In this document: one piece after another, positions 10,999-63,674 of the stretch
Layout of the letters: every line of letters begins with the position of its first letter
How positions within the stretch are numbered: the stretch's first letter is position 1
Program-made: the position numbers and the translations under genes
From: Erysipelotrichaceae bacterium
Lineage (GTDB): Bacteria; Bacillota_I; Bacilli_A; Erysipelotrichales; Erysipelotrichaceae
Direction of reading: 5' to 3'
Assembly: GCA_017515475.1 (NCBI GenBank)
Contig: JAFWFS010000027.1
Location: forward strand, 829-64,828
DNA: 64,000 nucleotides
The notes under the pieces: model-generated
What the model saw: the letters and a program-made list of their open reading frames with translations, nothing else
Told to the model about the DNA's origin: nothing
Databases searched by the model: none

Positions 10999-12474
10999 TC
11001 AGTCTCTCCTATAAAGATCTCTGGTATAGACTTTATCCTTGACATCTTCCAAACAGCTGTCAAAGCGGTTTGCGATAATGGTTTGGGAGAGTTTTTTGAA
11101 TTTGCTGAGATTGTTGACGATCTTTGATCCGAAGAAGGTATCGCCGTCCGGGAGAGTCGGTTCATAGATGATGACTTCCGCTCCCTTGGCCTTGATACGT
11201 TTCATGACGCCCTGGATGGAAGACTGACGGAAATTGTCGGAATTGGATTTCATCGTCAGACGGTAGACACCGATAACGGTCTTATGTTCCATCGCTTTAT
11301 CATACTGGGCAGAGCCCATGTAGGCACCTGCCATTTCCAGAACCCGATCAGAGATGAAGTCTTTTCTTGTACGGTTGGATTCGACGATCGCTTCGATCAG
11401 ATTTTCCGGGACGTCTGCGAAGTTCGCCAGAAGCTGTTTGGTGTCTTTCGGCAGACAATAGCCTCCGTAACCGAAGGAAGGGTTGTTGTAGTGGGAACCG
11501 ATCCTTGGATCCAGGCAGACGCCGTCGATGATCGCCTTGGTATTCAGACCTTTGGTCTCGGCATAGGTATCTAGTTCGTTGAAGTAGGATACTCGTAATG
11601 CCAGGTAGGTGTTTGCGAAGAGCTTGACCGCTTCCGCCTCGGTCAGACCGATGATCAGGGTATCGATGTCTTCCTTGATCGCACCCTGTTTCAGCAAAGC
11701 CGCAAATTCGTTTGCCGCCTTGACGTTTTCTTCGCTGTTCAGATCCGTTCCGACGATGATACGGGACGGATAGAGGTTGTCGTACAGGGCCTTGGATTCT
11801 CTCAGGAATTCCGGCGAGAACAGGATGCGGTCGTCGTTTTTCTCTTTTCTGACTCTCTCGGTGAATCCTACCGGAATCGTCGACTTGATGACGATGTATG
11901 CTTTCCTGTTGTGCTGTCTGACCAGGTCGATGACCGCTTCGACAGCACTGGTATCGAAGTAGTTCTTCTGCGGATCGTAGTTGGTAGGAGCCGCAACCAC
12001 GACATAGTCGGCATCCTTGTATGCGTATTCTCCATCCAGTGTCGCTTCCAAATCGAGCGTTCTGTTTGCCAGATAGTCTTCCAGATAGTCGTCCTGGATT
12101 GGCGATTTCCTGTCGTTGATCATCCTGACTTTTTCTTCGATGATGTCGACGGCTCTGACTCTGTTGTGCTGGGCCAGCAGTACGGCGATCGACATGCCGA
12201 CATAGCCCGTTCCGGCTACGGCGATCTTTCTGCTGATGGCAGCGGCCTTTGTTTCCGGCGACTCTTTTTCTCTTAGATCATCAAAAGAGAAACCGAGCAC
12301 TTCCTGCAGATCTTCCAGCTGGCTGACGGAAGGCATGTAGGAACCGTTTTCGATCTTGGAGATCATCGCCCGGTTGATGCCGGTCTTTTCCGCCAGGTCG
12401 TTCTGAGACAGGTTCAGTTTCTCTCTTCTTTCTTTCGTTACTTTTGCAAGCAGTTCTTCTTTAATTCTGTTCAT
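10999..12474 (-). CDS. ugd: UDP-glucose 6-dehydrogenase with an N-terminal XRE-type helix-turn-helix domain (fusion)
   Basis: 491 aa. Residues 1 to about 65 form an HTH_XRE domain ([38 protein letters not shown]). The remainder is a typical roughly 390-aa Ugd. It shows [19 protein letters not shown], the catalytic cysteine region [14 protein letters not shown], and a C-terminal UDP-binding domain. Confidence 0.9.
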
Positions 12475-12552
12475 AGCATTTACCTCGTCATAATGTTATC
12501 AATTATAACGGAATTAAGCAATAGAATAATTAACAATGATGCAGATAATAAC

Positions 12553-12580
12553 AAAAAAACAGACATCTTTCATGCCTGTT
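12553..12580 (-). terminator. Rho-independent terminator ending the minus-strand four-gene operon (17419 to 12610)
   Basis: On the minus strand the sequence reads aacaggcat-gaaag-atgtctgtt followed by T7. This gives a 9-bp stem including one G-U pair. It lies 30 nt downstream of the GT2 stop. Confidence 0.75.
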
Positions 12581-12609
12581 CAATAGTGCAAATCGCTTTT
12601 TTCATTTGC

Positions 12610-13293
12610 TTATCTGTATTTCAGGATACAGTAGATCGCTCTTAATCCGTCCTTGAAGCCGATCTTCTTGCCTTCTTCGTTCGTTCTTGGATAGTAGGAG
12701 ATTGGAACTTCCTTGATTCGGATGCCTTTCTTGGCGATCTTGGCGGTGACTTCCGGTTCGAAACCAAAACGGTCTTCCTTCAGATCGATGGACTGGATTA
12801 CTTCTCTCTTGAAACATTTGTAACAGGTCTCCATGTCGGTCAGCTTCTCGCCCGTAAAGAGGTTGGAAAGTGTCGTCAGGAACCAGTTGGCCACCCGGTT
12901 CGCCAGATAGCCTTTTCTTTTCTGATTGAGATATCTGGAACCGTATACGACTTCCGCTTCGCCGTTGAAGATCTTTTCTACGACCAGCGGGTATTCGTTT
13001 GGATCGTATTCCAGATCGGCATCCTGGACGATGACGGCATCTCCTGTCGCATGAGCGAAGCCTGTTCTTAAGGCTGCGCCTTTACCTTTATTCACGTCGT
13101 GGTATACAATCTGGGAAACCAGAGGTTTTACGTCCTTTTCCAGTATCGCTCTGGTGTTGTCCTTGGAACAGTCGTCGACGACGATGATTTCCTTGTTTTC
13201 TACCGGTGATCCCAGAACTTTTTTCACCAGATCAAGGATGCTGTTTTCTTCGTTGTAGCAGGGGATGACAATGCTTAATATTTTAACTTTCAT
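12610..13293 (-). CDS. GT2 glycosyltransferase, soluble DPM1/polyprenyl-phosphate sugar synthase type
   Basis: 227 aa. Motifs include LSIVIPCYNEENSI, VVDDCSKDNT, KGKGAALRTG and IVQDADLEYDP. It resembles dolichyl-/polyprenyl-phosphate mannose or glucose synthases and has no C-terminal TM segments. Confidence 0.8.
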   Translation of the reverse strand: MKVKILSIVIPCYNEENSILDLVKKVLGSPVENKEIIVVDDCSKDNTRAILEKDVKPLVSQIVYHDVNKGKGAALRTGFAHATGDAVIVQDADLEYDPNEYPLVVEKIFNGEAEVVYGSRYLNQKRKGYLANRVANWFLTTLSNLFTGEKLTDMETCYKCFKREVIQSIDLKEDRFGFEPEVTAKIAKKGIRIKEVPISYYPRTNEEGKKIGFKDGLRAIYCILKYR

Positions 13294-13304: not shown

Positions 13305-14903
13305 TTACCTTTCTGCAAATATTTTATCCCAACTATCGATATCAATAACATATATTGAAACATCAGCAATTACTATTTTATTCGATTTTATTTTTTCTAA
13401 CAATGGGATAAATTCCTTCTCTTCAGCATTCTGGGCAACATCTCTTGTCAATACATAAAAATAAGTCAAGTTTGATGGCTTTTCGTTTTCGTGCAAATAA
13501 ATGCGATCGTACTCGACGATGAATAATCCTCTCTCCTCATCATAAGCAATCGTGGTATTTTTGTTTTTTCCTTTAGATATCAGTTCTAACACTTTGTAAT
13601 ATCTCATGGTTGTATATCCATAGGATAAACCTTCCTGATTCAGGATATCGTTGATTTGAATCAACTTTTCCTTTGATTTTTCTCCCATAGGGAATGTGTA
13701 GAATATCGTTCTTAAAGAAAGGGAAACGACAAGTATCAGCACGGAAAGTTGGAGGATCATCTGAGGCTGTTTGTTCATCCTGTCAGTGAATAGGAATGCA
13801 TTGATTAGAAAAATAGATAGAATTCCGTTAAAGAGATATCTCTGAACGGAAGTCTTGAATAGAGTATATTGAAAAACACAAATGAACAAGACAACTGAGC
13901 TGCTCCACAACAGCAGCTTTCTGCTTTCATCAAGCGTAACTGTTGAACCGGATTTTGATCTGCGTAAATGATATGAAAATAGCGGGAAAATGATCAATGA
14001 TAAGGAGAACGCAAGCCTTATCAGAGCGAATAATCCTTTAGAGCTGAGAAGGGAAACATTGGTAGGGTTAAAATAAAAAACTTTTAAATAATCAGAAAAA
14101 AGATTATGGCTGAGATTTGAAAGTATACGATCCGTATCCGCGAAAATAAAGCGGTATACATACTGGTTTAAAGAAAATGCGGTTGAATTATAATGCCGAT
14201 ATACAAACAATCCGGCAATCGTAAAAATGATGACAAGAGATAAAACGATCAAGTCATCTTTGTTTATCTTTTTTTGGCAATAAAGCAGATATAAAAACCC
14301 CAACAGAACAGGAATGGTGCACAACGCTACTGTAACAACGCCATTAGCCGAACTCCAAAGGCAGAACACAATCAACAGAACCGAATTAAGATGAGTATTA
14401 CGATGATTTCGTATGTTGACAATACAGGAAAGCTCTCCTAAAAAGCAAACGAATCCGATGCCATAACACAGTAGATGGTGCAACAGATTATCTCCAGCAT
14501 ATGTGTATATGAAGAGCGATGTAATACTACAGAACAGAAGCCTGCTGCCGATGTTTTCATAGAGAGATTTTGAAAGCCTATATAGAGTACATAAATAGAT
14601 GAAAAAGAAAAATAACATCCCGACCTGATTAGAAAAAAAAGATACTCCAAAGAGTTTTACCAGAGGTGCCATGATGATATTCGAACCAAAAGGAACCACA
14701 TAATAATACACATAATCTGGATTTACTATTGAGTGAGATTTTAAGGATGCTTCTGCCCAAAAAACACCTTCAATAAAATCATACAGATCGTAGAAATTGA
14801 TGCCTTCAGAGAAAGAAAAAACACAAAAAAAACCGCTGATCGCAATCAAAAAAAAGATAATATGAATAATAAACATATTGATATTCGGTTTGATTCGAGA
14901 CAT
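13305..14903 (-). CDS. Polytopic integral membrane protein of unknown function (candidate extracytoplasmic glycosyltransferase or polymerase)
   Basis: 532 aa. It is very hydrophobic for about 400 aa, with many F/L/I-rich segments, and ends in a soluble tail of about 130 aa. The gene is AT-rich. A shared motif pattern with ORF 28872..30479 suggests the same family (...GSNIIMAPLVKLFG versus NTNLVFAPLFLITN). Confidence 0.6.
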   Translation of the reverse strand: MSRIKPNINMFIIHIIFFLIAISGFFCVFSFSEGINFYDLYDFIEGVFWAEASLKSHSIVNPDYVYYYVVPFGSNIIMAPLVKLFGVSFFSNQVGMLFFFFIYLCTLYRLSKSLYENIGSRLLFCSITSLFIYTYAGDNLLHHLLCYGIGFVCFLGELSCIVNIRNHRNTHLNSVLLIVFCLWSSANGVVTVALCTIPVLLGFLYLLYCQKKINKDDLIVLSLVIIFTIAGLFVYRHYNSTAFSLNQYVYRFIFADTDRILSNLSHNLFSDYLKVFYFNPTNVSLLSSKGLFALIRLAFSLSLIIFPLFSYHLRRSKSGSTVTLDESRKLLLWSSSVVLFICVFQYTLFKTSVQRYLFNGILSIFLINAFLFTDRMNKQPQMILQLSVLILVVSLSLRTIFYTFPMGEKSKEKLIQINDILNQEGLSYGYTTMRYYKVLELISKGKNKNTTIAYDEERGLFIVEYDRIYLHENEKPSNLTYFYVLTRDVAQNAEEKEFIPLLEKIKSNKIVIADVSIYVIDIDSWDKIFAER

Positions 14904-14916: not shown

Positions 14917-15858
14917 CTATAAGATCGTTTTCCTAAAATAATCAATAGTTTTCTTGAGACCTTCATCCAACGGAACCGTGGGTTCCCAGCCAAGTTCTTT
15001 TTTGGCGAGATCAATAACTGGTTTTCTCTGGGTAGGATCATCTTGCGGAAGCGGAAGGTAAACGATTTTGGATTTTGAACCTGTATGTTCGATGACTTTT
15101 TCTGCCAACTGCAGCATGGTGAATTCTCCAGGATTTCCCAGATTGACCGGTCCGGTAAACCCATCTCTGGAGTTCATCATTCGGATCAAGGCTTCTACTA
15201 GATCGTCAACATAACAGAACGATCTGGTCTGTGAACCATCGCCATAAATTGTGATATCTTCACCTTTGAGAGCCTGGACGATAAAGTTGGAAACGACTCT
15301 TCCATCGTCGCCTCTCATGTTAGGACCATAGGTATTGAAAATACGGACTACTTTGATATCGACGCCATGCTGACGGTGATAGTCGAAGAACAAAGTTTCG
15401 GCAGCTCTCTTGCCCTCATCGTAGCAGGAACGGATACCGTTTGGATTGACATGCCCCCAGTAGGATTCGGGCTGCGGATGGACTTCCGGATCACCGTAAA
15501 CTTCGGAGGTTGATGCCTGCAGGATTCTGGCATGGCATCTCTTGGCTAGACCCAATGTATGTAAAGCACCAATAAAGGAAGTTTTTATCGTTTTGATTGG
15601 GTCATATTGGTAGTGAATCGGTGACGCCGGACACGCTAAATTGTATATTTGGTCGCATTCAACATAAATGTCTTCAAGAATATCTTTACGGATGAATTCA
15701 AAATAAGGATTATCTAAAAGATGTCTGATATTGTCTTTTTGCCCAGTAAAAAGGTTATCCATGCATATGACATCGCAACCATCATTTAATAGTCTTTCGC
15801 ATAGGTGTGAACCGATAAAACCGGCTCCACCTGTTACTAATACCCTTGTTTTATTCAT
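14917..15858 (-). CDS. UDP-glucuronate decarboxylase (UDP-xylose synthase, UXS type SDR)
   Basis: 313 aa. It is nearly colinear with eukaryotic and bacterial UXS. Motifs include [97 protein letters not shown] and [16 protein letters not shown]. Confidence 0.9.
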
Positions 15859-15883: not shown

Positions 15884-17419
15884 TCATTTATTTGTTTCTG
15901 GAAGTTCTGCAGAAATCTTAACTACCAAATACTGTCCGATCTTTGCGATGCTGTTTTCTTTTGGCCAGACATTCATCTGTGCATATTCATCAGATGAAAC
16001 GACTTTCAAGTATTCATCGTATTCTACATCTTTAAAATCAAGACCAAAATAGTTCATAAAGTATTTCTGTCTGTTGTATGTTACACCCGTTCTGGTTTTC
16101 CAGAATACCGGATTGTCAGGCAAGTCAACTGCATAACGGTAGGTCTTGATCTGGCTTCGCAGAATTGTATCGTCGAAGAAGCCTGCAACAATAACCGGAG
16201 TCTCGTTTGGTTTGTATTCTTCATGATGTTCAATGTCGTATACAACCTGTGACATTTGGCTATATGTGTAGTCGTAGGACAATCTGAAACAATGGAAAGT
16301 CGCATTGGCTGATACGATATATGTCCATACTAAGAAGATGCACAGAAATGCCGTAATCGGTTTTATAATCCTATTTTGATCCGGTTCGATCATAGCAATT
16401 AAGAACGGGATAATTAGAATGTTCTGATAGGTCATCGATGTTGAATACTCTGCATTTGGCATGATCAGGCACACAACATTGGAAGCTACCGGAATCAGTG
16501 CAATGCAGAAAAGCGAAAGCAGTATAACACGTATATTCTTTTCTCTAAATCGTTTGAAAACAGTGACCATAAGTAGAATGAATATGATCAAATAGATAAT
16601 ATGGCGCTGTAGGATCCGGTCAGAGAAAAATCGGAAGTACTGTTTATAGGAATTAACAATACTTGAAGGCAAGGAGAAAATGATCCTTCCGACAGAAAGA
16701 TCAGCCATTCTGGAGCTGGCGTGCAAACCGGTTACCAGATATAGCAATTGTAAGGCAATATAGTATAATACAGCACCTGCAAAAGCGCAGACCAGTGCTT
16801 TTGTTGCTTTTTCAAGAATCTTTCTGAGATCCATTCCTTGGCGCAGGGATATTACCATTGTCATCAGAAACAAAGCGGCAGAAAAACCTAAATAGCTTTG
16901 ATAGATTCCCAGACCGCAGGTAATACAGATAACGGGAATCAACCAGCCGAAAACGCCTTTGTATTGAAAAACCGCATAAACATAGAAGGCAGAGAGTGTC
17001 AAAGCAATTGCGTAAGGGAAAGCCACGGCATTATATGTAAAATGGATTATCGATGCCGGAGTGACGGCCATTGTTAATGATAAAAGAGCTGCACTGAGAC
17101 AAGATTCCATTTTCCAGGTCTTCATGATGATATAGGATGATAGCCAGGTCAGGAAACAGTATCCCAGAACCGCCGGAAGAGGCATGACAATATTGCCGGA
17201 TATACTGAAAAGAATTGCCAAAAGCCATCTTCCACATCCGGAAATGATCCATGTTGCATTGCTGAAAGCGGTCAATCCTTCAATAATTCCGTCCGCATTG
17301 GTATATCCGTAAATAAAATAGAGATTATATGCCAATATACCGGCCATCGTGGAAAGACCTAATCCAATCAAGGCACATGAATATGATTCTTTTATTCTAA
17401 AGAATGATAGTTTGTTCAC
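15884..17419 (-). CDS. Polytopic membrane protein, possibly GtrII-like glucosyltransferase family
   Basis: 511 aa with about 11-13 hydrophobic spans followed by a soluble C-terminal domain. The N-terminal region [11 protein letters not shown]...GCGRWLL resembles serotype-converting GtrII-type GT-C proteins. This is recognition by eye only. Confidence 0.5.
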
Positions 17420-17507: not shown

Positions 17508-18983
17508 ATGTTTACAACGATATTAAAAACTATTGTTGAGCCAGAAAAAAGAAAAACGGGAACAATCAACCTGCTAATTACTTTTTTATATTTAAGCATA
17601 CACGCATTTGTCGCTTTTCATCACGAACACTGGATGGACGAGGCACAGGCATGGATCATTGCCAGCAACCTATCGATAAAAGAAATATTTGCTATCCTGT
17701 GTACGGAAGGCCATCCTTGCCTCTGGTTTCTTTTTTTGGTACCGTTTGCCAGATTCGGCTTCTCCTATCGGTACTTTAGTCTGATCAGTCTTCTGATAAT
17801 GGGGATTGGGTCGTTCATGTTTCTGCAGAAATCCCCTTTCAGTCTAGTTGTGAAAATCGGAGTTCATCTTAGTAGTGTTTTCCTTTTTTATAATCCGGTT
17901 GTATGTCGAAGTTATTCCCTAATTGCGCTGCTGATCATCCTGCTTGCTTCTTATTATCGGGATAGGGAATCGCATCCGCTTTTCTACGGTTTTCTTATTG
18001 TCTTACTGTTTCAAAGTCATGTTCTTGTTTACGGGTTAGGGATCGGTCTTGTGGCTGTTCTGATTCTGGATTATTGTCATAGCAAAAAAAGAAAGATACT
18101 GATCGGCAGTTTTGTTTCGATTGTGGGGCTGATTCTTTCGATCGCCCAGATTTTTCCCAGAGCAGGCTACGCTTCAGGAATTGATACATCAGCTGGAGGC
18201 ATATTCAGCAAGATCAATTTTACGAACATTATGAATGGTTTGCGCTATTTTGCGTATACATCCTGGGGATGGACATCTCAGTCGACTTGGCTGTTTCCTT
18301 ATTTGATTCTCGTTGGATTGATTGCCGCCATTTTCCTGTTTACTACAATAAACAAAAACTGGAAACAGCAGCTGCCTGTTATCATTGTTGCTATCTGCTC
18401 AATCGGCCTGTTCTTCGGTGTCGTTATCCTTGTCTATACACCACATGCACAGATGGCGTCGATTCTGATGATGATTGTTCTTTTAATCATGTGGGTGCTA
18501 TATGAAAATGATACACATCTAAATCTCAGACTGACGGTCGTGCTGTTTCTCGCGGTATCGTCGTTTTTGACTTTCATCCCTGCTCAGTCGAGCATGCGCA
18601 GCGATATTTACGGAAAGTATTCTTACAGCAAAGACGCAGCCGAATCACTTGGCAGCCGTCTCAAAGCAGGGGATACCGTTCTGATAGAAAACAGTACCTG
18701 TAGTTCGGCTGTATATGCATACCTTGCTTCAGAAACGAAAGACGTCTTCTTCTATGATCTCAACAATGAAACTGAGTATGTTTTTCATCGAATGGGAATA
18801 GAATACAGGCAGATTGGTAGAAATGATTTGGAAGAATCAATTCGGAAACATACTAAAAACGGAGGTTCCGTATACCTCTTATTGAATTCAGAGGTGGAAG
18901 ATGACCGATTAATATTGATATATACAAATCAGAACGAAAAACAAAGATGGAATGAGTCTTATTATATATATGAAGTGATATAA
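17508..18983 (+). CDS. GT-C-like polytopic membrane glycosyltransferase (PMT_2/ArnT-like motifs)
   Basis: 491 aa. After TM1 comes HEHWMDEAQAW (D-E at 17637-17642), followed by EGHPCLWF. This is the DE...hPPL pattern of ArnT/PMT-type GT-C enzymes. It has many TM segments and a soluble C-terminal domain of about 120 aa. Confidence 0.6.
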   Translation: MFTTILKTIVEPEKRKTGTINLLITFLYLSIHAFVAFHHEHWMDEAQAWIIASNLSIKEIFAILCTEGHPCLWFLFLVPFARFGFSYRYFSLISLLIMGIGSFMFLQKSPFSLVVKIGVHLSSVFLFYNPVVCRSYSLIALLIILLASYYRDRESHPLFYGFLIVLLFQSHVLVYGLGIGLVAVLILDYCHSKKRKILIGSFVSIVGLILSIAQIFPRAGYASGIDTSAGGIFSKINFTNIMNGLRYFAYTSWGWTSQSTWLFPYLILVGLIAAIFLFTTINKNWKQQLPVIIVAICSIGLFFGVVILVYTPHAQMASILMMIVLLIMWVLYENDTHLNLRLTVVLFLAVSSFLTFIPAQSSMRSDIYGKYSYSKDAAESLGSRLKAGDTVLIENSTCSSAVYAYLASETKDVFFYDLNNETEYVFHRMGIEYRQIGRNDLEESIRKHTKNGGSVYLLLNSEVEDDRLILIYTNQNEKQRWNESYYIYEVI

Positions 18984-30479: not shown

Positions 30480-30499
30480 ACCGCTGAAAGGCGGTTTTT
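30478..30499 (+). terminator. Rho-independent terminator separating the membrane-protein run from the kds operon
   Basis: aaaccgc-tgaaag-gcggttt followed by tt, overlapping the stop codon of the preceding gene. Confidence 0.7.
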
Positions 30500-30530
30500 G
30501 TATGTAAAGATAATATCGTTTATAATAGGA

Positions 30531-33024: not shown

Positions 33025-33025
33025 T

Positions 33026-34944: not shown

Positions 34945-34947
34945 ATT

Positions 34948-51827: not shown

Positions 51828-51839
51828 AATTGGATTAGA

Positions 51840-52820: not shown

Positions 52821-52828
52821 GAGCTGAT

Positions 52829-55344: not shown

Positions 55345-55359
55345 GCTATAATAAAAATT

Positions 55360-57552: not shown

Positions 57553-57554
57553 AA

Positions 57555-59207
57555 ATGAGAAGACTGTTTGACAAAAAATGGTATTTGCAACATTACCCAG
57601 AAGCAAATAGCTACAATAAGGGGGCCTTCAAACATTATATAGATATCGGATGGAGGAAGAATTATAATCCATCTGGATTCTTTTCTACTAGCCATTACCT
57701 GAAAGACCGTCCAGATGTGAGAGAGGCCAACATATGTCCATTGATACATTATTACCGATACGGTTTATGGGAAGGAGCGAAAATCTATCCTTCCTCATCT
57801 ATCTATAAAGGTAATTATAAAAAAAGACCGTTCATGTTTCTTCCGAGAACGATAAACAAATTGCTATGGAAAAAAGATATAAAAAAGAACAAGAATAAAA
57901 AGATACTGGTAATTCTGCATTTGTTTTATATTAATGCATTTAAAGAGATTAAATATTATCTTCAGAATCTTTCATGTTATAAATATGATCTTGTTATCTC
58001 CTATGTAGAGAATTATGATTATGGAACACTTTTTGAAGAAATTAAGAGATTCAAAAAAGACGTAGTTTTTGTTCCTGTCAAGAATCTTGGATATGATATA
58101 TGGCCGTTTATTAAGGTATTAAAAGAAACGAATCTGGATAGTTATGATATAGTGTTTAAGATTCAGTCCAAAAGAACGGAATACGCAAATCTTATCTATG
58201 GAAACTTCTTTAAAAACAGAGATTGGTTTTTATGTCTTTTTGACGGGATTTTAGGCCCATACAACGTGCACAAAACCGTAAGCAGCCTGACATCTAACGA
58301 AAGAATCGGGTTATCATGTTCGCAAAGACTTATCGTTTCTGATTCAGAACCGAAACTGAGCCGAACAAAAAAGAGATTGAAAGAACTGGGAATAACAATA
58401 TCGGATGATTACTGTTTTGTTTCTGGAACCTGTTTTGCGATTAAAAAGGAAATTGCAGAAAGAATTAAAGAATTAGATGTTAAAGAAGAGAACTTCACTC
58501 GTTCTTCTTACCGTGGTTTTTTCTCTAACGCTCACGCATTAGAAAGATATATTGGTAATGTAGCAAAAGAAATGGGTTACCTTTATCAAGGTAACCATAC
58601 CGGGATGATTCAAGAAAACAAGTGGAATAGACTCGAAGAAAAACTACGCAAACTTAGCGGGATAAGGATCATATCTGAACTACCAATAAAAATGTCCGAA
58701 GAGTTTAAACTCCGATGTTTAGATAATGGATTTATTAGAGATTACGGTATCGAGAAGATCAGAGTCGGTGATCTTTTCTCGTTGCAACCTCAGGATTTAA
58801 AAGCTTATCATCTAGATGAACTAGCACCATTCAGGTACTTAAAATCGGTTGAGAATCGTGAAGAGTATATACGATATTGTGAAACCGGCAGAAGATCGGA
58901 CTATCTTAATTTGTCAGATGATGAGTTTAAAGAGAAGATCAGGGAGATCTGTTGCGAGAGATTTGACAGGCTGATTGAGGACTTAAACCAAAACGGATAT
59001 AACGAAAATGAACCGATCATAATCGAAAAGAATACTAACAGAATACTGGATGGAACACATAGAGCATGTTGGATAATGAATAAATACGGCAAAGACAAAA
59101 TGATAAATGTTCTTTCTTTAGACGTTATTCATTTTGACATGTTTTCCGCCAGACCTTTCTTGTCATATTTAAAAGAGCTACACATGAATTATCAGTTTCA
59201 TGAATAA
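57555..59207 (+). CDS. rgpF: Rhamnan synthesis protein F (RgpF)-like glycosyltransferase with a C-terminal ParB/Srx-like extension
   Basis: 550 aa. The N-terminus has FDKKWYLQHYPE-type repeats. The central part KKILVILHLFYINAFKEIKYYLQNL..YDLVIS...DIWPF matches the RgpF family pattern. The last 150 aa or so contain PIIIEKNTNRILDGTHRACW. Confidence 0.65.
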   Translation: MRRLFDKKWYLQHYPEANSYNKGAFKHYIDIGWRKNYNPSGFFSTSHYLKDRPDVREANICPLIHYYRYGLWEGAKIYPSSSIYKGNYKKRPFMFLPRTINKLLWKKDIKKNKNKKILVILHLFYINAFKEIKYYLQNLSCYKYDLVISYVENYDYGTLFEEIKRFKKDVVFVPVKNLGYDIWPFIKVLKETNLDSYDIVFKIQSKRTEYANLIYGNFFKNRDWFLCLFDGILGPYNVHKTVSSLTSNERIGLSCSQRLIVSDSEPKLSRTKKRLKELGITISDDYCFVSGTCFAIKKEIAERIKELDVKEENFTRSSYRGFFSNAHALERYIGNVAKEMGYLYQGNHTGMIQENKWNRLEEKLRKLSGIRIISELPIKMSEEFKLRCLDNGFIRDYGIEKIRVGDLFSLQPQDLKAYHLDELAPFRYLKSVENREEYIRYCETGRRSDYLNLSDDEFKEKIREICCERFDRLIEDLNQNGYNENEPIIIEKNTNRILDGTHRACWIMNKYGKDKMINVLSLDVIHFDMFSARPFLSYLKELHMNYQFHE

Positions 59208-60147
59208 AGAAATGTATTATGATTTTGAAAAGAGGATATGGATGTTAAAAGAAAAAGCAAAAAAGCTAGTAAAAAAACTGCCTGTACTTAATAGCCTTTA
59301 TTCAAGGTCGGACAATCTACTTTCCAGAACGGAAGAGCTTTTTCACGAGCAGATTCAAATGCAGGAAGAGATAGAAAACCTAAAAAGGCAGCTTGCAAAA
59401 ATGCAGAACAGAATGGATTACGAGATCGACGCATTGGATCAAGTTATTTTGGGAAGGAATAGAGTCAGCATACCTGAAGGAAAAATCGCAGTTTATACGG
59501 CAATAATCGATAAGTATGATGTTTTATGGGAACCTGATTATATTGATGAAAGATGTGATTACTACTGTTTCACAAATAATAAAGAAATCGTTTCAGATAA
59601 ATGGAATATTGTTTTCTTCGATCGAAATCAGTATCCAGAATTAGAGGAATGTGATTCTGTAAAGGTAGCCAGATATATTAAGACACATCCGCATGTATTG
59701 TTAAAGAACTATAAACAGACCCTTTGGGTTGATGCAAATCTGCAGATTAAAAAAAGCATAGTAAACTGGATCGGGCTTTTTTTAAACGATGCAGCCATGC
59801 TGACCTTCAAACATCCATTAAGAGACTGTATTTATGAAGAAGGAGAAGCTTGCAAGGAAAAGAAAAAAGATGCATGTGACGTTATTGACAGGCAGTTGAG
59901 TATCTATCGGAATAATAAATACCCTGAACACAACGGGCTAATTATGACAAATGTTTTATATAGAAAGAACAATAAGACAATAACCGATTTTAACGAAAAG
60001 TGGTGGATGGAGATAAAAAACGGGAGTAGAAGAGATCAACTTAGTTTTAATTACGTTGCCTGGAAGACCGGAATCCTATTTGATCAATGTCATCTAAATC
60101 CATCCCAGAATTATTTTTTTGCGTATTATGCTCACGAAAAAAGATAA
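59200..60147 (+). CDS. DUF616 / TOD1-MUCI70-like glycosyltransferase-domain protein with an N-terminal coiled coil
   Basis: 315 aa. The N-terminal 70 aa are coiled-coil-like (EELFHEQIQMQEEIENLKRQLAKMQNRMD). They are followed by KIAVYTAIIDKYDVLWEP...YYCFTNN...VKVARYIKTHPHVLL...LWVDANLQI...RDQLSFNYVAW, typical of DUF616. Confidence 0.65.
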   Translation: MNKEMYYDFEKRIWMLKEKAKKLVKKLPVLNSLYSRSDNLLSRTEELFHEQIQMQEEIENLKRQLAKMQNRMDYEIDALDQVILGRNRVSIPEGKIAVYTAIIDKYDVLWEPDYIDERCDYYCFTNNKEIVSDKWNIVFFDRNQYPELEECDSVKVARYIKTHPHVLLKNYKQTLWVDANLQIKKSIVNWIGLFLNDAAMLTFKHPLRDCIYEEGEACKEKKKDACDVIDRQLSIYRNNKYPEHNGLIMTNVLYRKNNKTITDFNEKWWMEIKNGSRRDQLSFNYVAWKTGILFDQCHLNPSQNYFFAYYAHEKR

Positions 60148-60184
60148 CAGATAATTACAGTATTGGAATCAACTATATAAAAAT

Positions 60185-61309
60185 ATGACAATGGGCCAGT
60201 CTACACTGTTTAGCAAGAAAACAACCTCTATGTTGCACGGATTAGCCATATTGATGATGATATATCATCATCTCTTTATTAATGGTAACCACTGGTGCTT
60301 AAATGAAGGGGCTTCTTTGTTTGATATACTGGAATTCATGAATCCGTATCGTTCTGCTTCCGTGCAGCTCTTATTTGCCTGGTTCTGTAAGATCTGCGTT
60401 GCGGTCTTTGCTTTCACATCCGGATATGGGATCTGTGCCCAGCTGGACAAGAAATGTGATGGAACGTACAGATCCATGTATGGTTACTGTTTCAGAAGAC
60501 TATGGTCTTTCTATAAACAGTTCATGATTGCTTTTCTGTTTTTTAATGGTTACCAGTTGCTGTTTGATAATTCTCATGGCTTTGATTATTCATTTCTGAA
60601 TTTTATACTGAATATGCTGGGCTTGAGAACATCATACAATGCGACCCTGTGGTACGTTCCTTTATATTACTGCATGATCCTGCTTTCTCCGCTTTTTTAT
60701 GCGGTATTAAACGGAAAGATCAGCTTTAGATTAGTCGTTTGGCTAGCGATTGCCGGCATATTCTGTTCTGCTACGATTCTGTGCTATGCCTATATGATCA
60801 ATGATTTGCCGCATTATCTTATGATTTTTTCGAATCTGATTCAGAGCCCGTTCACTATTTATATGACCGTCTTCTTTGAAGGAATGGCCTGCTGTAGATT
60901 TTTAATACTTGATAAAATTAGTCGGAAGATGGGTTTATTGACAAATCTTCTTCTCTTAACCGCAACGTTTGTTCTGCGTACCATGGTGATTAGAGTGCCC
61001 GGGGATTACGTTTTCGATATTATGTTTATTATCCCGTTCATACTCAGCGTTTCCGGACTTATGTCGTATTCGAAATACTTGAGTACCGCTTTATGTCGTC
61101 TTGGAAACTATTCTTCCTACATGTGGTATTCCCATCCTTACTTCTATTCCTACTTGTTCTTTGGCTTCATAAGAAAAAGTGACATTTCACTGTTTGTATA
61201 TGCTCAGGTAGTGCTTTATTCGATGACGACATCCTTGTTTTTTTCGTTTGTTGAGAAAAATCTTGATAAACTATGTAAGAATATTATTAGAAAGGAAACG
61301 ACTTCATGA
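60185..61309 (+). CDS. Acyltransferase-3 family membrane O-acyltransferase (second copy)
   Basis: 374 aa with about 10 TM segments. It carries the histidine motif [16 protein letters not shown] near the N-terminus. Confidence 0.65.
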
Positions 61310-62187
61310 AAGGTATTATTTTAGCTGGAGGAGCCGGAACAAGACTGTACCCCCTGACAATGGTGACATCCAAGCAGCTTCTGCCTGTTTATGATAAACC
61401 GATGATCTACTATCCTTTAAGCACATTGATGCTGGCGGGAATCAAGGAGATTCTGGTTATCTCTACACCATCGGATACGCCTAGATTCCAGGAACTCTTA
61501 GGTGATGGTTCACAGTTTGGTGTTTCTCTTTCTTACTGCGTACAGCCTTCTCCGGACGGTCTGGCCCAGGCTTTCATTCTTGGAAAAGAATTCATTGGAG
61601 ATGATTCCTGTGCAATGGTGCTGGGAGATAACATTTTCTACGGAAATGGTTTCTCACATATTCTGGAAAAGGCGAGAATGAACGCTGAAGAAAACAATAG
61701 AGCGACGATATTCGGATACCACGTCAATGATCCAGAACGCTTCGGAATTGTTGAATTCGACAAGAACGGAAAGGTTTTGTCCGTTGAGGAAAAACCTGCT
61801 CATCCGAAATCAAATTACTGCATTACTGGTCTGTATTTCTACCCGAAAGGTGTTTCAGCGATGGCGGGCAAAGTGAAGCCGTCTGCAAGAGGCGAGCTGG
61901 AGATAACAACCTTGAATGACATGTATCTGAAAGAAGAAAGACTGGATGTGGAACTTCTCGGAAGAGGTTATGCGTGGCTGGATACTGGAACGATGGATTC
62001 TCTTGTTGAAGCGGCCGTTTATGTACAGCTTTTATCCAAGAGGCAGAATTATGTCATTTCCGCTCCGGAAGAGATTGGATATAAATATGGCTGGATCAGT
62101 AGGGATGGACTGTTGAACAGCGCTGCACGTTACGGAAAATCTCCATATGGAGAGCATCTTAAGGCTGTGGCCGAAGGAAGAGAATAG
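61306..62187 (+). CDS. rmlA: Glucose-1-phosphate thymidylyltransferase
   Basis: 293 aa. Motifs include [18 protein letters not shown]...[68 protein letters not shown] and [11 protein letters not shown]. Confidence 0.95.
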
Positions 62188-62188
62188 A

Positions 62189-62761
62189 ATGAAGCGGATC
62201 GATACTGCCATTGAGGGAGTATATATTATCGAATCGGACTGTTACGGCGATAACCGTGGCTGGTTTATGGAAACATATAATCAGGCCAAGTTTCGTGATC
62301 TTGGAATAGATACTGTTTTTGTGCAGGACAATATGTCGTATTCTGCACAGAAAGGCACCTTAAGAGGTTTGCACTATCAAAGAGGTGAACACTCTCAAAC
62401 AAAGCTTGTCAGGTGTACCAGAGGGATAGTCATCGACGTTGCGGTAGATATCAGAAAAGGATCTCCGACTTACGGAAAATACGTAACCTGTGAGCTTTCG
62501 GCAGAAAACAAAAGGATGTTTTATATTCCTAGAGGCATGGCTCACGGTTTTCTGACGGTAACGGATGACGTTGAATTCCAGTACAAGTGTGATAATCTTT
62601 ACAATAAGGAATCGGAAGGATCTATCAGATATGATGATCCTGATATCGGTATCGACTGGGGCTCATTGTTAAACGGCATAGAACCGGTATTATCGGATAA
62701 GGACAAGATCGCTCCAACCCTGAAAGAATGCAATGCGGACTTTATTTATGAAAAACGATAA
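62189..62761 (+). CDS. rmlC: dTDP-4-dehydrorhamnose 3,5-epimerase
   Basis: 190 aa from the ATG at 62189. Motifs include IEGVYIIES....DNRGWFMETYN, LRGLHYQ...SQTKLVRCTRGIVIDVAVDIRKGSPTYGK, YIPRGMAHGF and YKCD. The track start at 62147 lies inside rmlA. Confidence 0.92.
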   Translation: MKRIDTAIEGVYIIESDCYGDNRGWFMETYNQAKFRDLGIDTVFVQDNMSYSAQKGTLRGLHYQRGEHSQTKLVRCTRGIVIDVAVDIRKGSPTYGKYVTCELSAENKRMFYIPRGMAHGFLTVTDDVEFQYKCDNLYNKESEGSIRYDDPDIGIDWGSLLNGIEPVLSDKDKIAPTLKECNADFIYEKR

Positions 62762-63674
62762 GAAAACTGTATTGATTCTGCTAGTGGCAGTATTGCTGGT
62801 TTTATGTGGCATTGCCGGCTACAAGGTTTTTCTTTTTGTAAAAGATAAATATCATTATCTCCGTGAACATCTTGATAATATAGAGAAGCTCGTTGATTAT
62901 GAATCCGAAAGAAACTACAGACATTATGATTTTGATTATAGTTGGGCAGAAGAAAATGTTCTGGTAGCTCATGCCATGGGCGCATATGACGGCGATACTT
63001 ATACAAATTCGTTGCAGGCATTCAAGTATAATTACGATCTTGGATACAGGGTTTTTGAAGTTGATTTCGACTTAAGCAGCGATCACTACCTGATCTGCTC
63101 TCATGATGAAGAATACTGGCGGCAGATTTCTCAATCAGACGATAGCATTGAATACAGTCTGGAAAACTTCAAATCTCGTCCAATCTGTGGAGACGTCAAT
63201 ACCTTGGATGGAAAAGATATCATAGACCTTCTGAACGAGTATCCGGATATTTACATCATCACCGACACCAAATATTCAGATGAATTCAGGACCAAACTGC
63301 AGTTTACTCAGCTTCTGAATTATGCCAAAGAAAAAGATCTGACCGTTATGGACAGGATTATCCCGCAGATTTATTCCAGACAAATGTTTGATTTTGTAAT
63401 GGAAATCTATGAATTCAAGTCAATGATTTATACACTTTACCAGGATCCAGACTGGGAAACCGATATGATGGCTTTGTTCTGTTCAAAAACCGGAATCGGT
63501 TTTATAACCATGGGGCAGAATTTTCTGGATCAGAACAGAATAGACATATGGAAAAGATTCGGTATAAAAACCGCTGTCCATACAGTTGATGAAAAAGAAA
63601 AAGCACGGGAATTCCTGAAAACGGGCGTTACGATGGTATATTCGAATTTACTAATGCCAGATGATTTTAGATAA
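62748..63674 (+). CDS. Membrane-anchored glycerophosphodiester phosphodiesterase-like (GDPD / PI-PLC X-domain-like) protein
   Basis: About 308 aa from the ATG at 62748. It has a single N-terminal TM (VLILLVAVLLVLCGIAGY). LVAHAMGAYDG...NSLQAF...GYRVFEVDFDLSSDHYLICSHD follows, matching the HxxG...E.D...H.D catalytic pattern of the GDPD superfamily. Confidence 0.6.
   Translation: MKNDKKTVLILLVAVLLVLCGIAGYKVFLFVKDKYHYLREHLDNIEKLVDYESERNYRHYDFDYSWAEENVLVAHAMGAYDGDTYTNSLQAFKYNYDLGYRVFEVDFDLSSDHYLICSHDEEYWRQISQSDDSIEYSLENFKSRPICGDVNTLDGKDIIDLLNEYPDIYIITDTKYSDEFRTKLQFTQLLNYAKEKDLTVMDRIIPQIYSRQMFDFVMEIYEFKSMIYTLYQDPDWETDMMALFCSKTGIGFITMGQNFLDQNRIDIWKRFGIKTAVHTVDEKEKAREFLKTGVTMVYSNLLMPDDFR

Follow-up and report, generated by a model that had tools for sequence, protein, structure and literature searches.

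A cell-envelope polysaccharide locus, 65 kb or longer and with a complete set of Kdo genes, in an uncultured Erysipelotrichaceae bacterium

The stretch of DNA analysed here (the window, 64,000 nucleotides) covers 53 kb of a locus for cell-envelope polysaccharide synthesis whose length is at least 65 kb. We consider it fairly probable that this is an enlarged rhamnose-type wall-polysaccharide locus; its gene families point to the biosynthetic steps proposed below. The DNA comes from an uncultured, monoderm member of the Erysipelotrichaceae living in ruminant guts: a protein from an NCBI Erysipelotrichaceae MAG is 100% identical to g25, and g12 with its flanking genes shows 80-96% identity to Erysipelotrichaceae and Solobacterium MAGs.

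Exactly 47 long non-nested open reading frames (ORFs), 40 on the forward and 7 on the reverse strand, occupy positions 10999-63674, the number that the first-pass annotation had given for contiguous envelope-glycan genes. Gaps between them range from -112 to +135 nt (median 1.5 nt), and their summed length equals 99.7% of the span. Of these ORFs, 40 can be assigned to glycan-related families by sequence searches of Pfam, NCBIfam and PDB; the earlier family assignments are almost all right. Three more are placed by predicted fold (g37 and g25) or via the Pfam families of homologues (g24), so that a glycan role has family- or fold-level support for 43 of the 47. The remaining four (g14, g17, g19 and g26) are membrane proteins of 11-13 helices. 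Terminator-like hairpins break the region up into four or more transcription units, a point against the reading proposed below. The features are listed in Table 1.

Table 1. Features of the locus within the window
Feature	Position	Strand	Basis or remark
Hairpin just past g12 stop codon, terminator-like	10973..10993	-	9 pairs, 6 G-C
g12 XRE-type HTH + UDP-glucose 6-dehydrogenase fusion	10999..12474	-	UDP-GlcA supply
Hairpin between g13 and g12, terminator-like	12557..12581	-	within intergenic 12475-12609
g13 short GT2 (227 aa), polyprenyl-phosphate sugar synthase type	12610..13293	-	Pfam Glycos_transf_2
g14 polytopic, unclassified, GT-C candidate	13305..14903	-	~12 helices (hydropathy)
g15 UDP-glucuronate decarboxylase (UDP-xylose synthase)	14917..15858	-	phmmer vs human UXS1
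g16 GtrII-family polytopic glycosyltransferase, GT-C type	15884..17419	-	Pfam Glucos_trans_II, E 1e-22
g17 polytopic, unclassified, GT-C candidate	17508..18983	+	~12 helices
g18 flavoenzyme related to eukaryote-type UDP-galactopyranose mutase	18996..20546	+	NCBIfam PRK07208, 778 bits
g19 polytopic, unclassified	20476..22011	+	~13 helices; start codon uncertain
g20 GtrB/ArnC/PgfS-type GT2, Und-P-sugar synthase	22051..23016	+	Pfam; TM helices 239-273
g21 GtrB-type GT2, paralogue of g20 and g47	23021..23974	+	Pfam
g22 DegT-family sugar aminotransferase (FdtB/QdtB-like)	23958..25055	+	Pfam DegT_DnrJ_EryC1, E 7.5e-114
g23 FdtA-type dTDP-4-keto-6-deoxyhexose 3,4-ketoisomerase	25058..25471	+	Pfam FdtA, E 1.8e-45
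g24 polytopic, large GT-C-related family	25464..27005	+	homologues' Pfam families
g25 GT-C-fold membrane glycosyltransferase	27041..28870	+	AF2 model pLDDT 91
g26 polytopic, unclassified, constant g25 partner	28872..30479	+	~11 helices
Hairpin between g26 and kdsB, terminator-like	30478..30497	+	8 pairs, then T-rich tail
g27 KdsB, CMP-Kdo synthetase	30498..31280	+	NCBIfam NF003952, TIGR00466
g28 KdsA, Kdo-8-phosphate synthase	31273..32049	+	NCBIfam NF003543, TIGR01362
g29 KdsD/KpsF, arabinose-5-phosphate isomerase	32059..33024	+	TIGR00393, Pfam
g30 YhcH/DUF386 fused to KdsC, Kdo-8-P phosphatase	32957..33934	+	start codon uncertain
g31 GT2 (318 aa, soluble)	33988..34944	+	Pfam
g32 glucose-1-phosphate cytidylyltransferase (RfbF)	34948..35658	+	TIGR02623, 306 bits (cut-off 300)
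g33 CDP-glucose 4,6-dehydratase (RfbG)	35625..36689	+	TIGR02622, 400 bits (cut-off 278); start set by 354-aa gene call
g34 DegT-family aminotransferase, CDP-amino-dideoxyhexose synthesis	36698..37816	+	Pfam E 9e-111
g35 RmlC-like sugar-nucleotide epimerase, CDP pathway	37813..38379	+	TIGR01221, 183 bits
g36 Wzx-family flippase	38372..39778	+	Pfam Polysacc_synt, E 1e-12; ~10 helices
g37 soluble GT-B, bacterial-sialyltransferase-like	39779..40849	+	predicted fold, motifs
g38 GT2	40846..41775	+	Pfam
g39 GT4	41776..42936	-	Pfam Glycos_transf_1 + Glyco_transf_4
g40 membrane O-acyltransferase	42975..43976	+	Pfam Acyl_transf_3, E 2e-24
g41 short GT2 (242 aa)	43962..44690	-	Pfam
g42 short GT2, GacI/WpsA/PpgS type (Und-P-sugar synthase)	44769..45437	+	Pfam
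g43 DUF2304 small membrane protein (GacJ/WpsB/Rv3632 family activator)	45449..45805	+	Pfam DUF2304, E 8e-27
g44 DUF2142 polytopic, GT-C candidate	45802..47841	+	Pfam DUF2142, E 9e-44
g45 GT4-like enzyme, RgpA position	47856..48956	+	weak Pfam Glyco_trans_1_4 match
g46 GT2, RgpB position	48953..49864	+	Pfam
g47 GtrB/ArnC/PgfS-type GT2 with C-terminal helices	49895..50908	+	Pfam, NCBIfam, TM helices
g48 YdjC-family carbohydrate deacetylase	50892..51827	+	Pfam YdjC, E 1e-27
g49 ABC-2 permease (Wzm/RgpC type)	51843..52820	+	Pfam ABC2_membrane
g50 ABC ATPase (Wzt/RgpD type), 252 aa	52829..53587	+	Pfam ABC_tran
g51 large GT4-like glycosyltransferase	53584..55344	+	Pfam Glyco_trans_1_4; start set by 586-aa gene call
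g52 bifunctional GT2 + GT4 (730 aa)	55360..57552	+	Pfam
g53 RgpF-domain rhamnan synthesis protein	57555..59207	+	Pfam RgpF, E 3.7e-17
g54 TOD1/MUCI70-like putative glycosyltransferase	59200..60147	+	Pfam E 4.7e-14
g55 membrane O-acyltransferase	60185..61309	+	Pfam Acyl_transf_3
g56 RmlA	61306..62187	+	TIGR01207, 452 bits (cut-off 361)
g57 RmlC	62147..62761	+	TIGR01221, 227 bits (cut-off 156)
g58 glycerophosphodiester phosphodiesterase-family protein	62733..63674	+	Pfam GDPD

The extent first proposed, about 53 kb, was too short. Past g58 and the window end the locus goes on for at least 12.5 kb (downstream genes in L087-L090), encoding rmlB, rmlD, two LtaS/OpgB-like phosphoglycerol transferases and one Bac_transf initiating enzyme. 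The left edge is the conserved anchor gene g12 (GC 0.50; HTH_3 at residues 14-67 plus three UDPG_MGDP_dh domains in Pfam; NCBIfam UDP-glucose 6-dehydrogenase, 543 bits), and the full-length fusion is kept in relatives, there adjoining gpsA and transaldolase genes. The GDP-fucose genes (875-6765), earlier counted as donor supply, are real but lie in separate core-GC DNA, with four housekeeping genes and an IS200 transposase between them and the locus; they are a neighbour and only possibly a part of it. A chimeric sequence is unlikely, because overlapping contigs from independent assemblies (ENA and Logan) match both ends of the window at 99.7-100% identity, over ~1-12 kb and 35.8-64 kb; coverage of the 12-36 kb middle is deduced only from the length of the 115-kb contig behind L001.

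In its central part the locus fits the plan of rhamnose wall-polysaccharide loci, with a GacI/GacJ-type pair (g42 and the DUF2304 protein g43), a DUF2142 protein, GT4/GT2 enzymes, Wzm/Wzt and RgpF. DUF2304 is the GacJ family (bioRxiv 10.1101/180810), and the DUF2142 family is present in S. thermophilus rgp loci (PMC9746298). The ABC-transporter block (47856-62761) does run in the Rgp order first described for it; members not listed then are a GtrB-type GT2, a YdjC deacetylase, a TOD1-like protein and an acyltransferase. By place and domain, g45 and g46 are putative orthologues in the RgpA and RgpB positions and g53 is RgpF-like, its match covering only half of the RgpF model (positions 262-503 of 503). 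The ATPase g50 is without a C-terminal glycan-binding extension, and g52 joins Glycos_transf_2 (residues 98-224) to Glycos_transf_1 (593-702) according to Pfam. NCBIfam matches of g48 to chitin disaccharide deacetylase and HpnK are both below cut-off, and g54 has no PDB relative. RmlB and RmlD are located 10 kb past the window end, and therefore the dTDP-rhamnose pathway, previously called partial, is complete; all four enzymes exceed curated cut-offs.

Four-component and dual-chain models of glycan assembly, including a GT-C polymerase instead of Wzy, have been reviewed (PMC9574508). [quoted passage not shown] The content of the Wzx block (33988-44690) stands, but no Wzy was found in it, so the term Wzx-dependent should not be taken to mean Wzx/Wzy. 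The ORF after Wzx encodes g37, a soluble, sialyltransferase-like GT-B. Neither the window nor the 12.5 kb downstream contains a TagO/WecA-type initiating enzyme, an LCP ligase or a GtrA flippase, which counts against the proposed reading.

Kdo is a sugar known best from Gram-negative bacteria. The CMP-Kdo supply proposed earlier is upheld, and each of the four Kds enzymes scores higher than a curated cut-off: KdsB (NF003952, 309 bits, cut-off 193; TIGR00466, 236 bits, cut-off 155), KdsA (NF003543, 418 bits, cut-off 242; TIGR01362, 402 bits, cut-off 314), KdsD (TIGR00393, 322 bits, cut-off 204; Pfam SIS and CBS domains) and the KdsC fusion g30 (TIGR01670, 132 bits, cut-off 107; TIGR00022, 100 bits, cut-off 45.5), a fusion retained in L097-L100. 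The best candidate CMP-Kdo transferase is g37, whose donor is suggested by gene neighbourhood only. It has no TM helix; Foldseek matches its AF2 model (pLDDT 92) first to polysialyltransferase 5wcn with CDP (E 6e-9) and next to NST 2yk4, and its invariant residues include D125-G126 in a DDG stretch and H248-P249 in an R-L-H-P stretch. A (K/R)XHP motif is common to sialyl- and Kdo-transferases (PMC12887879). In all contexts with at least 37% identity, the homologue lies directly 3' of a Wzx gene with a CTP_transf_3 cytidylyltransferase gene nearby. The homologues in L102-L105, beside a cytidylyltransferase without kdsA, count against Kdo as the donor.

The other proposed donors also hold up. 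UDP-GlcA and UDP-Xyl would come from g12 and g15 (full-length match to human UXS1, 4gll and 2b69, E 2e-124, phmmer), the dTDP-3-amino-3,6-dideoxyhexose from FdtA and its aminotransferase, and the CDP-6-deoxyhexose from a CDP-glucose synthase and 4,6-dehydratase above curated cut-offs. For g34, aminotransferase models score far above the RfbH dehydrase model. The epimerase g35 is 37% identical to g57, and its counterparts in relatives (57-80% identical) accompany g32-g34; g31 accompanies the CDP-sugar genes in L097 and L103-L105. Probably g18 supplies a furanose donor, a seventh route beyond the "at least six" first counted: the PDB entries that match it best are UGMs (4u8l, 3ute and 4dsg, E ~1e-12), and an ordinary Glf occupies its position in relative L098.

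Polyprenyl-phosphate-type GT2 enzymes number six, not five: g20, g21 and g47 are full-length and GtrB/ArnC/PgfS-like with C-terminal helices, and g13, g41 and g42 are short, g41 being counted only on size and a BLAST match to g13. The following NCBIfam matches are all below cut-off: PgfS (340 bits) and ArnC (176 bits) over the full length of g20; as best matches, AglJ, ArnC, dolichyl-P hexose transferase and PpgS for g13, which has no TM helix; and AglJ, dolichyl-P hexose transferase and PpgS for g42. Full-length identity between g21 and g20 is 30%, and the L098 counterpart of g21 (84% identical) is also beside FdtA/FdtB-type genes. The GtrB-type enzymes are similar to PgfS, which belongs to a system for glycosylating proteins, so the acceptors may include proteins or teichoic acids.

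Eight polytopic membrane proteins were correctly counted, but the GT-C-like label does not extend to all, four of the eight being unclassified (g14, g17, g19 and g26, with no Pfam or PDB match). An acidic YDxxD stretch follows helix 1 in g14, and HWMDE in g17. The g24 family comprises 2119 representative clusters at E <= 0.001, with sampled members matching GT87 (4), PMT_2 (3), Glyco_transf_22 (1) and GtrII (1); after helix 1, D37 is invariant and E38 nearly so. Foldseek matches of g25 are led by AftA (E 2e-4), followed by PglB, STT3, AftB and DPY19, and its D109 and E110 are invariant.

From g21 to g46 nearly the same gene order is found in a 27% GC genome at 34-87% protein identity, and therefore the adjacency of the blocks is not specific to this strain. 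In L097, the counterparts of g45 and g46 are 60% and 66% identical, and the g24 homologue is located after that of g37. The g25-g26-kdsBADC-...-Wzx-g37 arrangement occurs in three genomes, g25 adjoining kds genes in three; g26 homologues follow those of g25 in L098, L099 and L100. Against the proposed reading, the left arm g13-g19 is not kept in the relative that retains g21-g46, and the closest relatives by g12 have other genes in its place.

Taken as a rhamnose-type system, the locus may work as follows. RmlA and RmlC, with the downstream RmlB and RmlD, would provide dTDP-L-rhamnose; g45, g46, g51, g52 and g53 would assemble from it, within the cell, a lipid-linked chain that contains rhamnose, and g49 and g50 would export this chain. 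A second glycan might be started by g42/g43 or by the downstream Bac_transf enzyme, extended by the soluble enzymes g31, g38, g39 and g41 and, with CMP-Kdo from g27-g30, by g37, with CDP-4-amino-4,6-dideoxyhexose from g32-g35 as a further donor, and then be flipped by g36. Outside the membrane, g24, g25 and probably g26 and g44 would join or polymerise it without need for Wzy (compare WpsI and WpsJ of Lactococcus). For single-sugar decorations, g20, g21, g47, g13 and possibly g41 would load undecaprenyl phosphate, likely with xylose (g12, g15), 3-amino-3,6-dideoxyhexose (g22, g23), a hexosamine from which g48 has removed the acetyl group and, via g18, a furanose, and the remaining polytopic proteins g14, g16, g17 and g19 would transfer them outside. 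Finishing would fall to the O-acyltransferases g40 and g55 and the two downstream phosphoglycerol transferases.

The product may be one highly decorated wall polymer or several, and a single polymer goes beyond what sequence can tell. Streptococci, enterococci and lactococci make their rhamnose-rich wall polysaccharides on the same plan, but this locus is much larger and has a Kdo pathway; it is an extension of a known system, not the founding of a new one.

Between 10999 and 63674 lie 47 of the 58 long non-nested ORFs of the window (six-frame ORF list), with almost no spacing: neighboring ORFs stand -112 to +135 nt apart (median 1.5 nt), the ORFs sum to 99.7% of the span, and 40 of the 47 are on the + strand. 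The 47 contiguous genes counted in the first-pass annotation are thus real, and nearly all of its gene assignments were confirmed by Pfam and NCBIfam profile searches over the locus ORFs, which were complemented by PDB sequence searches and, for g25 and g37, by Foldseek on AlphaFold models (see table). GC is 0.50-0.53 over the first 10 kb and 0.34-0.45 for most locus genes, the exceptions being g12 (0.50), g13 (0.47) and kdsA/kdsD (0.48-0.49). An IS200-type transposase gene sits at this core-GC/low-GC border, between the transaldolase gene and g12. The window holds no tRNAs, Rfam families or repeats of 40 nt or longer, and its promoter-like matches show no excess over the shuffled expectation. 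Given terminator-like hairpins at three intergenic sites and four strand switches, the predicted transcription units are at least g16-g13, g12, g17-g26, g27-g38, g39, g40, g41 and g42 onward.

Features of the glycan locus and its surroundings (window coordinates)
Feature	Position	Strand	Assignment
GDP-fucose genes	875-6765		in core-GC DNA
IS200 element	10389-10865	+	Y1 transposase
Hairpin	10973-10993		terminator-like, after g12
g12	10999-12474	-	UDP-glucose dehydrogenase with N-terminal XRE-type HTH fusion
Hairpin	12557-12581		terminator-like, g13/g12
g13		-	short GT2, polyprenyl-phosphate synthase type
g14		-	12-helix membrane protein
g15		-	UDP-glucuronate decarboxylase; E 2e-124 vs human UXS1
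g16		-	GtrII-family polytopic protein
g17		+	polytopic membrane protein
g18	18996-20546	+	516-aa flavoenzyme; NCBIfam PRK07208, 778 bits
g19		+	polytopic membrane protein
g20, g21		+	two GtrB/ArnC/PgfS-type GT2s
g22, g23		+	DegT aminotransferase, then FdtA
g24-g26		+	three polytopic proteins
Hairpin	30478-30497		terminator-like, g26/kdsB
g27-g30			5' to 3': KdsB, KdsA, KdsD, YhcH-KdsC fusion; each above a curated NCBIfam cut-off
g30	32957-33934	+	YhcH/DUF386-KdsC fusion
g31			GT2
g32-g35			CDP-glucose synthase and CDP-glucose 4,6-dehydratase (both above cut-offs), aminotransferase, RmlC-like epimerase
g36			Wzx-family protein; Pfam Polysacc_synt
g37	39779-40849		soluble protein, candidate Kdo transferase
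g38-g41			GT2, GT4 and GT2 genes and acyltransferase
g42-g44			short GT2, DUF2304, DUF2142
g45-g48			GT4-like, GT2, GtrB-type GT2, YdjC
g49, g50			Wzm (Pfam ABC2_membrane), Wzt (Pfam ABC_tran)
g51-g53			586-aa GT4-like, 730-aa GT2+GT4, RgpF-domain protein
g54, g55			TOD1-like protein, acyltransferase
g56-g58			RmlA, RmlC, GDPD-family protein

The locus reaches beyond 63674, where it had been assumed to stop. On contigs that carry the identical GDPD protein (L089 2546-12505; also L087 and L088) it goes on with a pair of LtaS/OpgB-like phosphoglycerol transferases; a trio of VTC, DUF4956 and CotH proteins, RmlB, RmlD and an initiating transferase of the Bac_transf family (442 aa) are encoded there as well, as is a weakly GH130-like protein. 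RmlA, RmlC, RmlB and RmlD score 452, 227, 485 and 274 bits, all above the NCBIfam equivalog cut-offs. Since rmlB and rmlD lie about 10 kb past the window end, the dTDP-rhamnose pathway, earlier described as partial, is complete, and the locus measures at least 65 kb.

The other donor pathways previously listed were borne out by their families, and all four CMP-Kdo enzymes (KdsD, KdsA, KdsC, KdsB) are encoded. The list had missed g18: among solved structures its nearest relatives are UDP-galactopyranose mutases of the eukaryotic type (E about 1e-12), and it probably provides an additional furanose-donor route. In a relative (L098 2867-3952) the position of g18 holds an ordinary bacterial Glf, and in another locus (L130 11877-13436) a g18-like protein is encoded near a g25-like GT-C protein. 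The GDP-fucose genes are genuine, but they stand in core-GC DNA apart from the locus, separated from it by an AsnC regulator, an aminotransferase, gpsA, the transaldolase and the IS200 transposase. Outside the window, just upstream of the gmd-fcl-manC-ROK-PMM block, the matching contig L001 encodes FucU and an Fkp-type fucokinase/GDP-fucose pyrophosphorylase of 979 aa (4310-7702), so the organism is equipped to make GDP-fucose de novo as well as by salvage. In an Acetatifactor (Lachnospiraceae) MAG (L022 4987-7100), fcl and gmd homologues of 88% and 73% identity occur near a g12-like fusion gene, a hint that the GDP-fucose genes may also have been transferred between families.

Glycosyltransferases of the undecaprenyl-phosphate-sugar-synthase type number six, not five as first counted: g20, g21 and g47, which are full-length GtrB-like paralogues carrying C-terminal helices, and the short g13, g41 and g42, where g41 is counted solely for its size and its similarity to g13. 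The g42 protein matches PpgS and dolichyl-phosphate-hexose transferases, and its neighbor g43 matches DUF2304 (E 8e-27). In g53 the Pfam RgpF match (E 3.7e-17) is limited to model positions 262-503. The GT4-like g45 and the GT2 g46 are likened to RgpA and RgpB by the positions they occupy. No relatives of g52 came from the metagenome scan.

The eight polytopic proteins bear on how the chain is built. The AlphaFold model of g25 (pLDDT 91) finds only GT-C enzymes in Foldseek, namely AftA (E 2e-4), then PglB, STT3, AftB and DPY19, and D109-E110 is invariant after the early helices in its alignment. A weak Wzy_C hint (E 0.16) had made g25 a candidate Wzy, which these fold matches rule out. The g24 family is large (2119 representative clusters), and its sampled members match GT87, PMT_2, Glyco_transf_22 and GtrII. 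GT-C evidence thus covers g16, g24 and g25, whereas g44 is placed by family only (DUF2142, a GT-C candidate by its Pfam clan); our tally of family- or fold-level support stands at five of the eight proteins, those named being g16, g24, g25 and g44. Pfam and PDB sequence searches gave no family placement for g14, g17, g19 and g26, and hhalign comparisons of the g24 and g25 family profiles with the other polytopic proteins, and of all pairs, were insignificant (best, A3 against A2, probability 25%). Among the 47 ORFs there is no Pfam match to Wzy_C, EpsG or Wzz at E <=0.001; the test by fold covered g25 (GT-C, not Wzy or SEDS), and that by sequence covered g14, g17, g19 and g26. The Wzx-dependent assembly of the first-pass annotation should therefore not be taken in the Wzx/Wzy sense: no Wzy match was found, and the ORF after the Wzx gene encodes no TM helix.

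We read the locus as an enlarged system for a rhamnose-rich cell-wall polysaccharide (Rha-CWPS), because its parts map onto the models described for such polymers (PMC9574508). In these models, side chains start on undecaprenyl phosphate through a GacI/GacJ-type pair, grow in the cytoplasm, cross the membrane by means of a Wzx-family flippase and are then attached by GT-C enzymes without Wzy; in Lactococcus, GT-C enzymes also polymerize the side chain. The same models comprise an ABC-exported rhamnan, three-component single-sugar decoration and extracellular glycerol-phosphate addition by an LtaS-like enzyme (PMC9574508). GacJ is a DUF2304 protein (bioRxiv 10.1101/180810), and rgp loci of S. 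thermophilus include DUF2142 proteins (PMC9746298). With rgp (S. mutans, S. thermophilus), gac (S. pyogenes), epa (E. faecalis) and cwps (L. lactis), the present locus shares rmlABCD; GT4 and GT2 genes ahead of those for Wzm/Wzt and an RgpF-domain protein; a pair of the GacI/GacJ (WpsA/WpsB) type, here g42/g43; a Wzx-family flippase (g36) and GT-C transferases (g16, g24, g25); DUF2142; GtrB-type decoration enzymes; LtaS-like phosphoglycerol transferases, of which GacH is one; and the lack of Wzy.

The differences from these Lactobacillales loci concern scale and content. The host belongs to the class Erysipelotrichia, and the locus exceeds 65 kb or equals it, whereas gac spans about 14 kb. It has eight polytopic proteins, six undecaprenyl-phosphate-type GT2s and seven donor pathways in the locus or its 12.5-kb extension, in addition to the adjacent GDP-fucose genes; CMP-Kdo, a CDP-amino-dideoxyhexose, an Fdt-type 3-amino sugar, UDP-xylose and the mutase-like flavoenzyme set it apart. 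The initiator nearby is the Bac_transf enzyme, and neither a TagO/WecA-type GlcNAc-1-P transferase nor an LCP enzyme is encoded in the 64-kb window and the 12.5 kb downstream. In streptococci, the TagO/WecA-type and LCP genes sit elsewhere in the genome. The three GtrB-type GT2s with C-terminal TM helices (g20, g21, g47) have polytopic partners present, and no GtrA-family flippase was found in the window; in L. lactis, the three-component flippase is encoded elsewhere (PMC9574508).

Decoration also recalls the Arn pathway (ArnA/B/C/D/T) and the mycobacterial PpgS-Rv3632-Rv3779 system. The likenesses are the combination in g12-g16 of a UGDH, a UDP-GlcA decarboxylase-type SDR, an ArnC-like GT2 and a polytopic transferase, a GtrB-type GT2 beside amino-sugar genes (g21-g23), another beside a deacetylase gene (g47, g48) and the DUF2304 activator g43. 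Unlike ArnA, g15 is a UXS orthologue, with neither a formyltransferase gene nor ArnB adjacent, and a wall glycan would be the acceptor in place of lipid A or arabinogalactan; the links between genes are drawn from adjacency. On the same basis of adjacency and conserved neighborhood, xylose may be added via g12, g15 and g13, then g14 and g16; the 3-amino sugar via g22, g23 and g21; a deacetylated hexosamine via g47 and g48; and Kdo via g37.

The HTH-UDP-glucose 6-dehydrogenase fusion of g12 occurs at full length in at least 24 genomes from Erysipelotrichaceae, Lachnospiraceae, Enterococcus cecorum and Anaerococcus, and in the Erysipelotrichaceae MAGs examined it is a fixed anchor with varying glycan genes alongside. 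It may be an enzyme-regulator linking UDP-sugar status to transcription; operator-like palindromes for its HTH domain were sought in the intergenic regions, with nothing convincing found.

The main rival to the enlarged Rha-CWPS reading is that several independent products are merely clustered here: an ABC-exported rhamnose polymer; a Wzx-flipped, GT-C-polymerized Kdo/amino-sugar heteropolysaccharide or capsule; and GtrB/GT-C sets acting on lipoteichoic acid or surface proteins. The separate transcription units, with their three hairpins and four strand switches, are in keeping with it, as is the left arm (g13-g19), which is not shared with relatives: the closest relatives by g12 carry SDR, GtrB-type GT2, YfhO, acyltransferase and LicD genes beside g12 instead. 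More distant g25 homologues belong to other wall-glycopolymer loci without kds genes, g20 and g47 are similar to PgfS, which belongs to a protein-glycosylation system of streptococci, and the downstream Bac_transf enzyme could start an independent chain. Against this stands the gene order in relatives. A 58-kb Logan contig of 27% GC (SRR27279344; L097/L098) has homologues in the order g21-g22-g23-g25-g26-g27 to g36-g37-g24-g38-g41-g39-(GT4)-g44-g45-g46, at 52-87% protein identity except for g44 (34%), and a third genome keeps g25-g26-kdsB-A-D-(YhcH-KdsC)-acyltransferase-Wzx-g37. The Fdt, Kdo, CDP-sugar, Wzx, DUF2142 and RgpA/B-position genes thus stand together in more than one strain, which counters the refuting outcome named in the first-pass annotation, blocks adjacent in this strain only. 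Moreover, the GacI/GacJ-type pair and DUF2142 lie immediately ahead of the rhamnan genes, as in described rgp/cwps loci, and Wzy, Wzz and capsule export genes were not found among the locus ORFs. On balance we consider a mere cluster of unrelated products rather unlikely. Enzymes such as KdsA are 87% identical in the 58-kb contig despite a locus GC of 0.27 there, 0.34-0.45 here and 0.50-0.53 in the host core, which suggests that the module moved horizontally.

Within the enlarged Rha-CWPS system, the fate of CMP-Kdo points to g37. Because of its place after Wzx, g37 was considered as a Wzy polymerase, which is ruled out by the lack of a TM helix and by its GT-B fold. The AlphaFold model (pLDDT 92) matches best polysialyltransferase 5wcn with CDP (E 6e-9, TM 0.58), then the Neisseria sialyltransferase NST 2yk4. 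The g37 family is small (18 clusters); g37 itself has no Pfam match, and the most distant member, P0018, alone carries PF07388 (polysialyltransferase). Across 16 family members, D125, G126, H248 and P249 do not vary; in g37 they lie within D124-D125-G126 and R246-L247-H248-P249, so that both the D/E-D/E-G and the (K/R)XHP motifs of sialyltransferase-like GT-B enzymes are present. The former motif is defined in the polysialyltransferase literature; the latter is the CMP-binding motif common to sialyltransferases and retaining Kdo transferases (PMC12887879). Homologues of at least 37% identity are always encoded directly after a Wzx gene, with a CTP_transf_3 cytidylyltransferase gene nearby, and the three closest contexts contain the full kds set.

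Compared with GT38 (5wcn) and GT52 (2yk4) enzymes, g37 shares the GT-B fold, the motifs and a neighboring CMP-sugar synthetase gene, but its identity to them is merely 13-14%, and the locus lacks a sialic, legionaminic or pseudaminic acid synthase. As CMP-Kdo is the only CMP-sugar made by the locus, we infer that g37 is the best candidate Kdo transferase. With the known enzymes WaaA (GT30), KpsC/KpsS (GT107), WbbB (GT99) and KrkA (GT140; PMC12887879), it has in common (K/R)XHP, two Rossmann domains and the expected donor; KpsC/KpsS, WbbB and KrkA are retaining beta-Kdo transferases (PMC12887879). These families are absent from the top 50 structural matches of g37, which has no Pfam match to them either, and its host is a monoderm. 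We advance tentatively, at less than even confidence, that a monoderm puts Kdo on a rhamnose-type wall polysaccharide through an unrecognized small family of sialyltransferase-like (GT38/GT52-fold) enzymes and a dedicated CMP-Kdo pathway (with KdsC-YhcH as a possible anomerase), within a module (g25-like, g26-like, kdsBADC, Wzx, g37) that moves between genomes of very different GC. The YhcH/DUF386-KdsC fusion of g30 is kept in three other genomes. Its YhcH domain belongs to the same family as the sialic-acid anomerase and may act as a Kdo anomerase that supplies KdsB.

The complete CMP-Kdo pathway is accompanied by ABC and Wzx export, both typical of O-antigen loci, and the Kdo genes might accordingly serve the lipid A core of a diderm. 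This is highly improbable: Erysipelotrichaceae are a monoderm family; lpx genes, WaaA, WaaL, Wzy and Wzz are absent from the 64 kb; the kds genes have GT-C genes on one side and the Wzx gene on the other and travel with them in relatives; and the GacJ-family, RgpF, GtrII and LtaS-like genes are of kinds described in Gram-positive wall-polysaccharide systems.

Least credible of all is an assembly chimera of two organisms. GC falls from 0.52 to about 0.40 between 10 and 12 kb, and several assemblies break at 41974 and 61170, which might speak for it. Yet low GC is normal in polysaccharide loci, the g12-gpsA-transaldolase neighborhood is kept in related MAGs, and the core/locus junction is spanned by independent contigs (L001, L002), as are, at 99.99-100% identity, 41974 (L091, L093, L094) and 61170 (L087). 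Contigs of separate ENA and Logan assemblies agree with the window at 99.7-100% identity for about 1-12 kb and for 35.8-64 kb, the 12-36 kb middle being covered by inference alone from the length of the 115-kb contig behind L001. As to the host, g25 shares 100% identity with IKE50_05420, on a 212-kb contig of an Erysipelotrichaceae bacterium MAG, across the portion called in that MAG, g12 is 94% identical in an uncultured Solobacterium MAG and 88% in goat- and buffalo-gut Erysipelotrichaceae MAGs, and the flanking core genes g07-g10 are syntenic in those MAGs at 80-96% identity. Several assemblies end or insert N-gaps exactly at 41974 and 61170, where there is no repeat and others read through; the breaks may mark co-existing strain variants. 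The same-species metagenome contigs searched for strain variation were all 99.7-100% identical, and their apparent gene-call differences are N-gaps or differing start calls.

The architecture is of a known kind, and what is new is its scale and the host lineage. Also new, as predicted from the genes, would be the Kdo, CDP-amino-sugar and xylose content and the sialyltransferase-like candidate Kdo transferase; a literature search returned nothing relevant on Kdo in Gram-positive or rhamnose wall polymers or on Erysipelotrichaceae wall polysaccharides. In streptococci, enterococci and lactococci, wall polysaccharides rich in rhamnose serve as phage receptors and antigens and determine cell shape, and to our knowledge they have been worked out almost solely in Lactobacillales. 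The present locus suggests that the same assembly logic is at work, in far more elaborate form, in Erysipelotrichaceae, a common but little-studied gut family. It offers testable candidates for a new type of Kdo transferase, for a portable Kdo module for Gram-positive envelopes, and for decoration routes that use lipid-linked xylose and amino-dideoxyhexoses. Were Kdo truly displayed on a monoderm wall, this would bear on recognition by host lectins and antibodies and on the use of Kdo as a Gram-negative marker.
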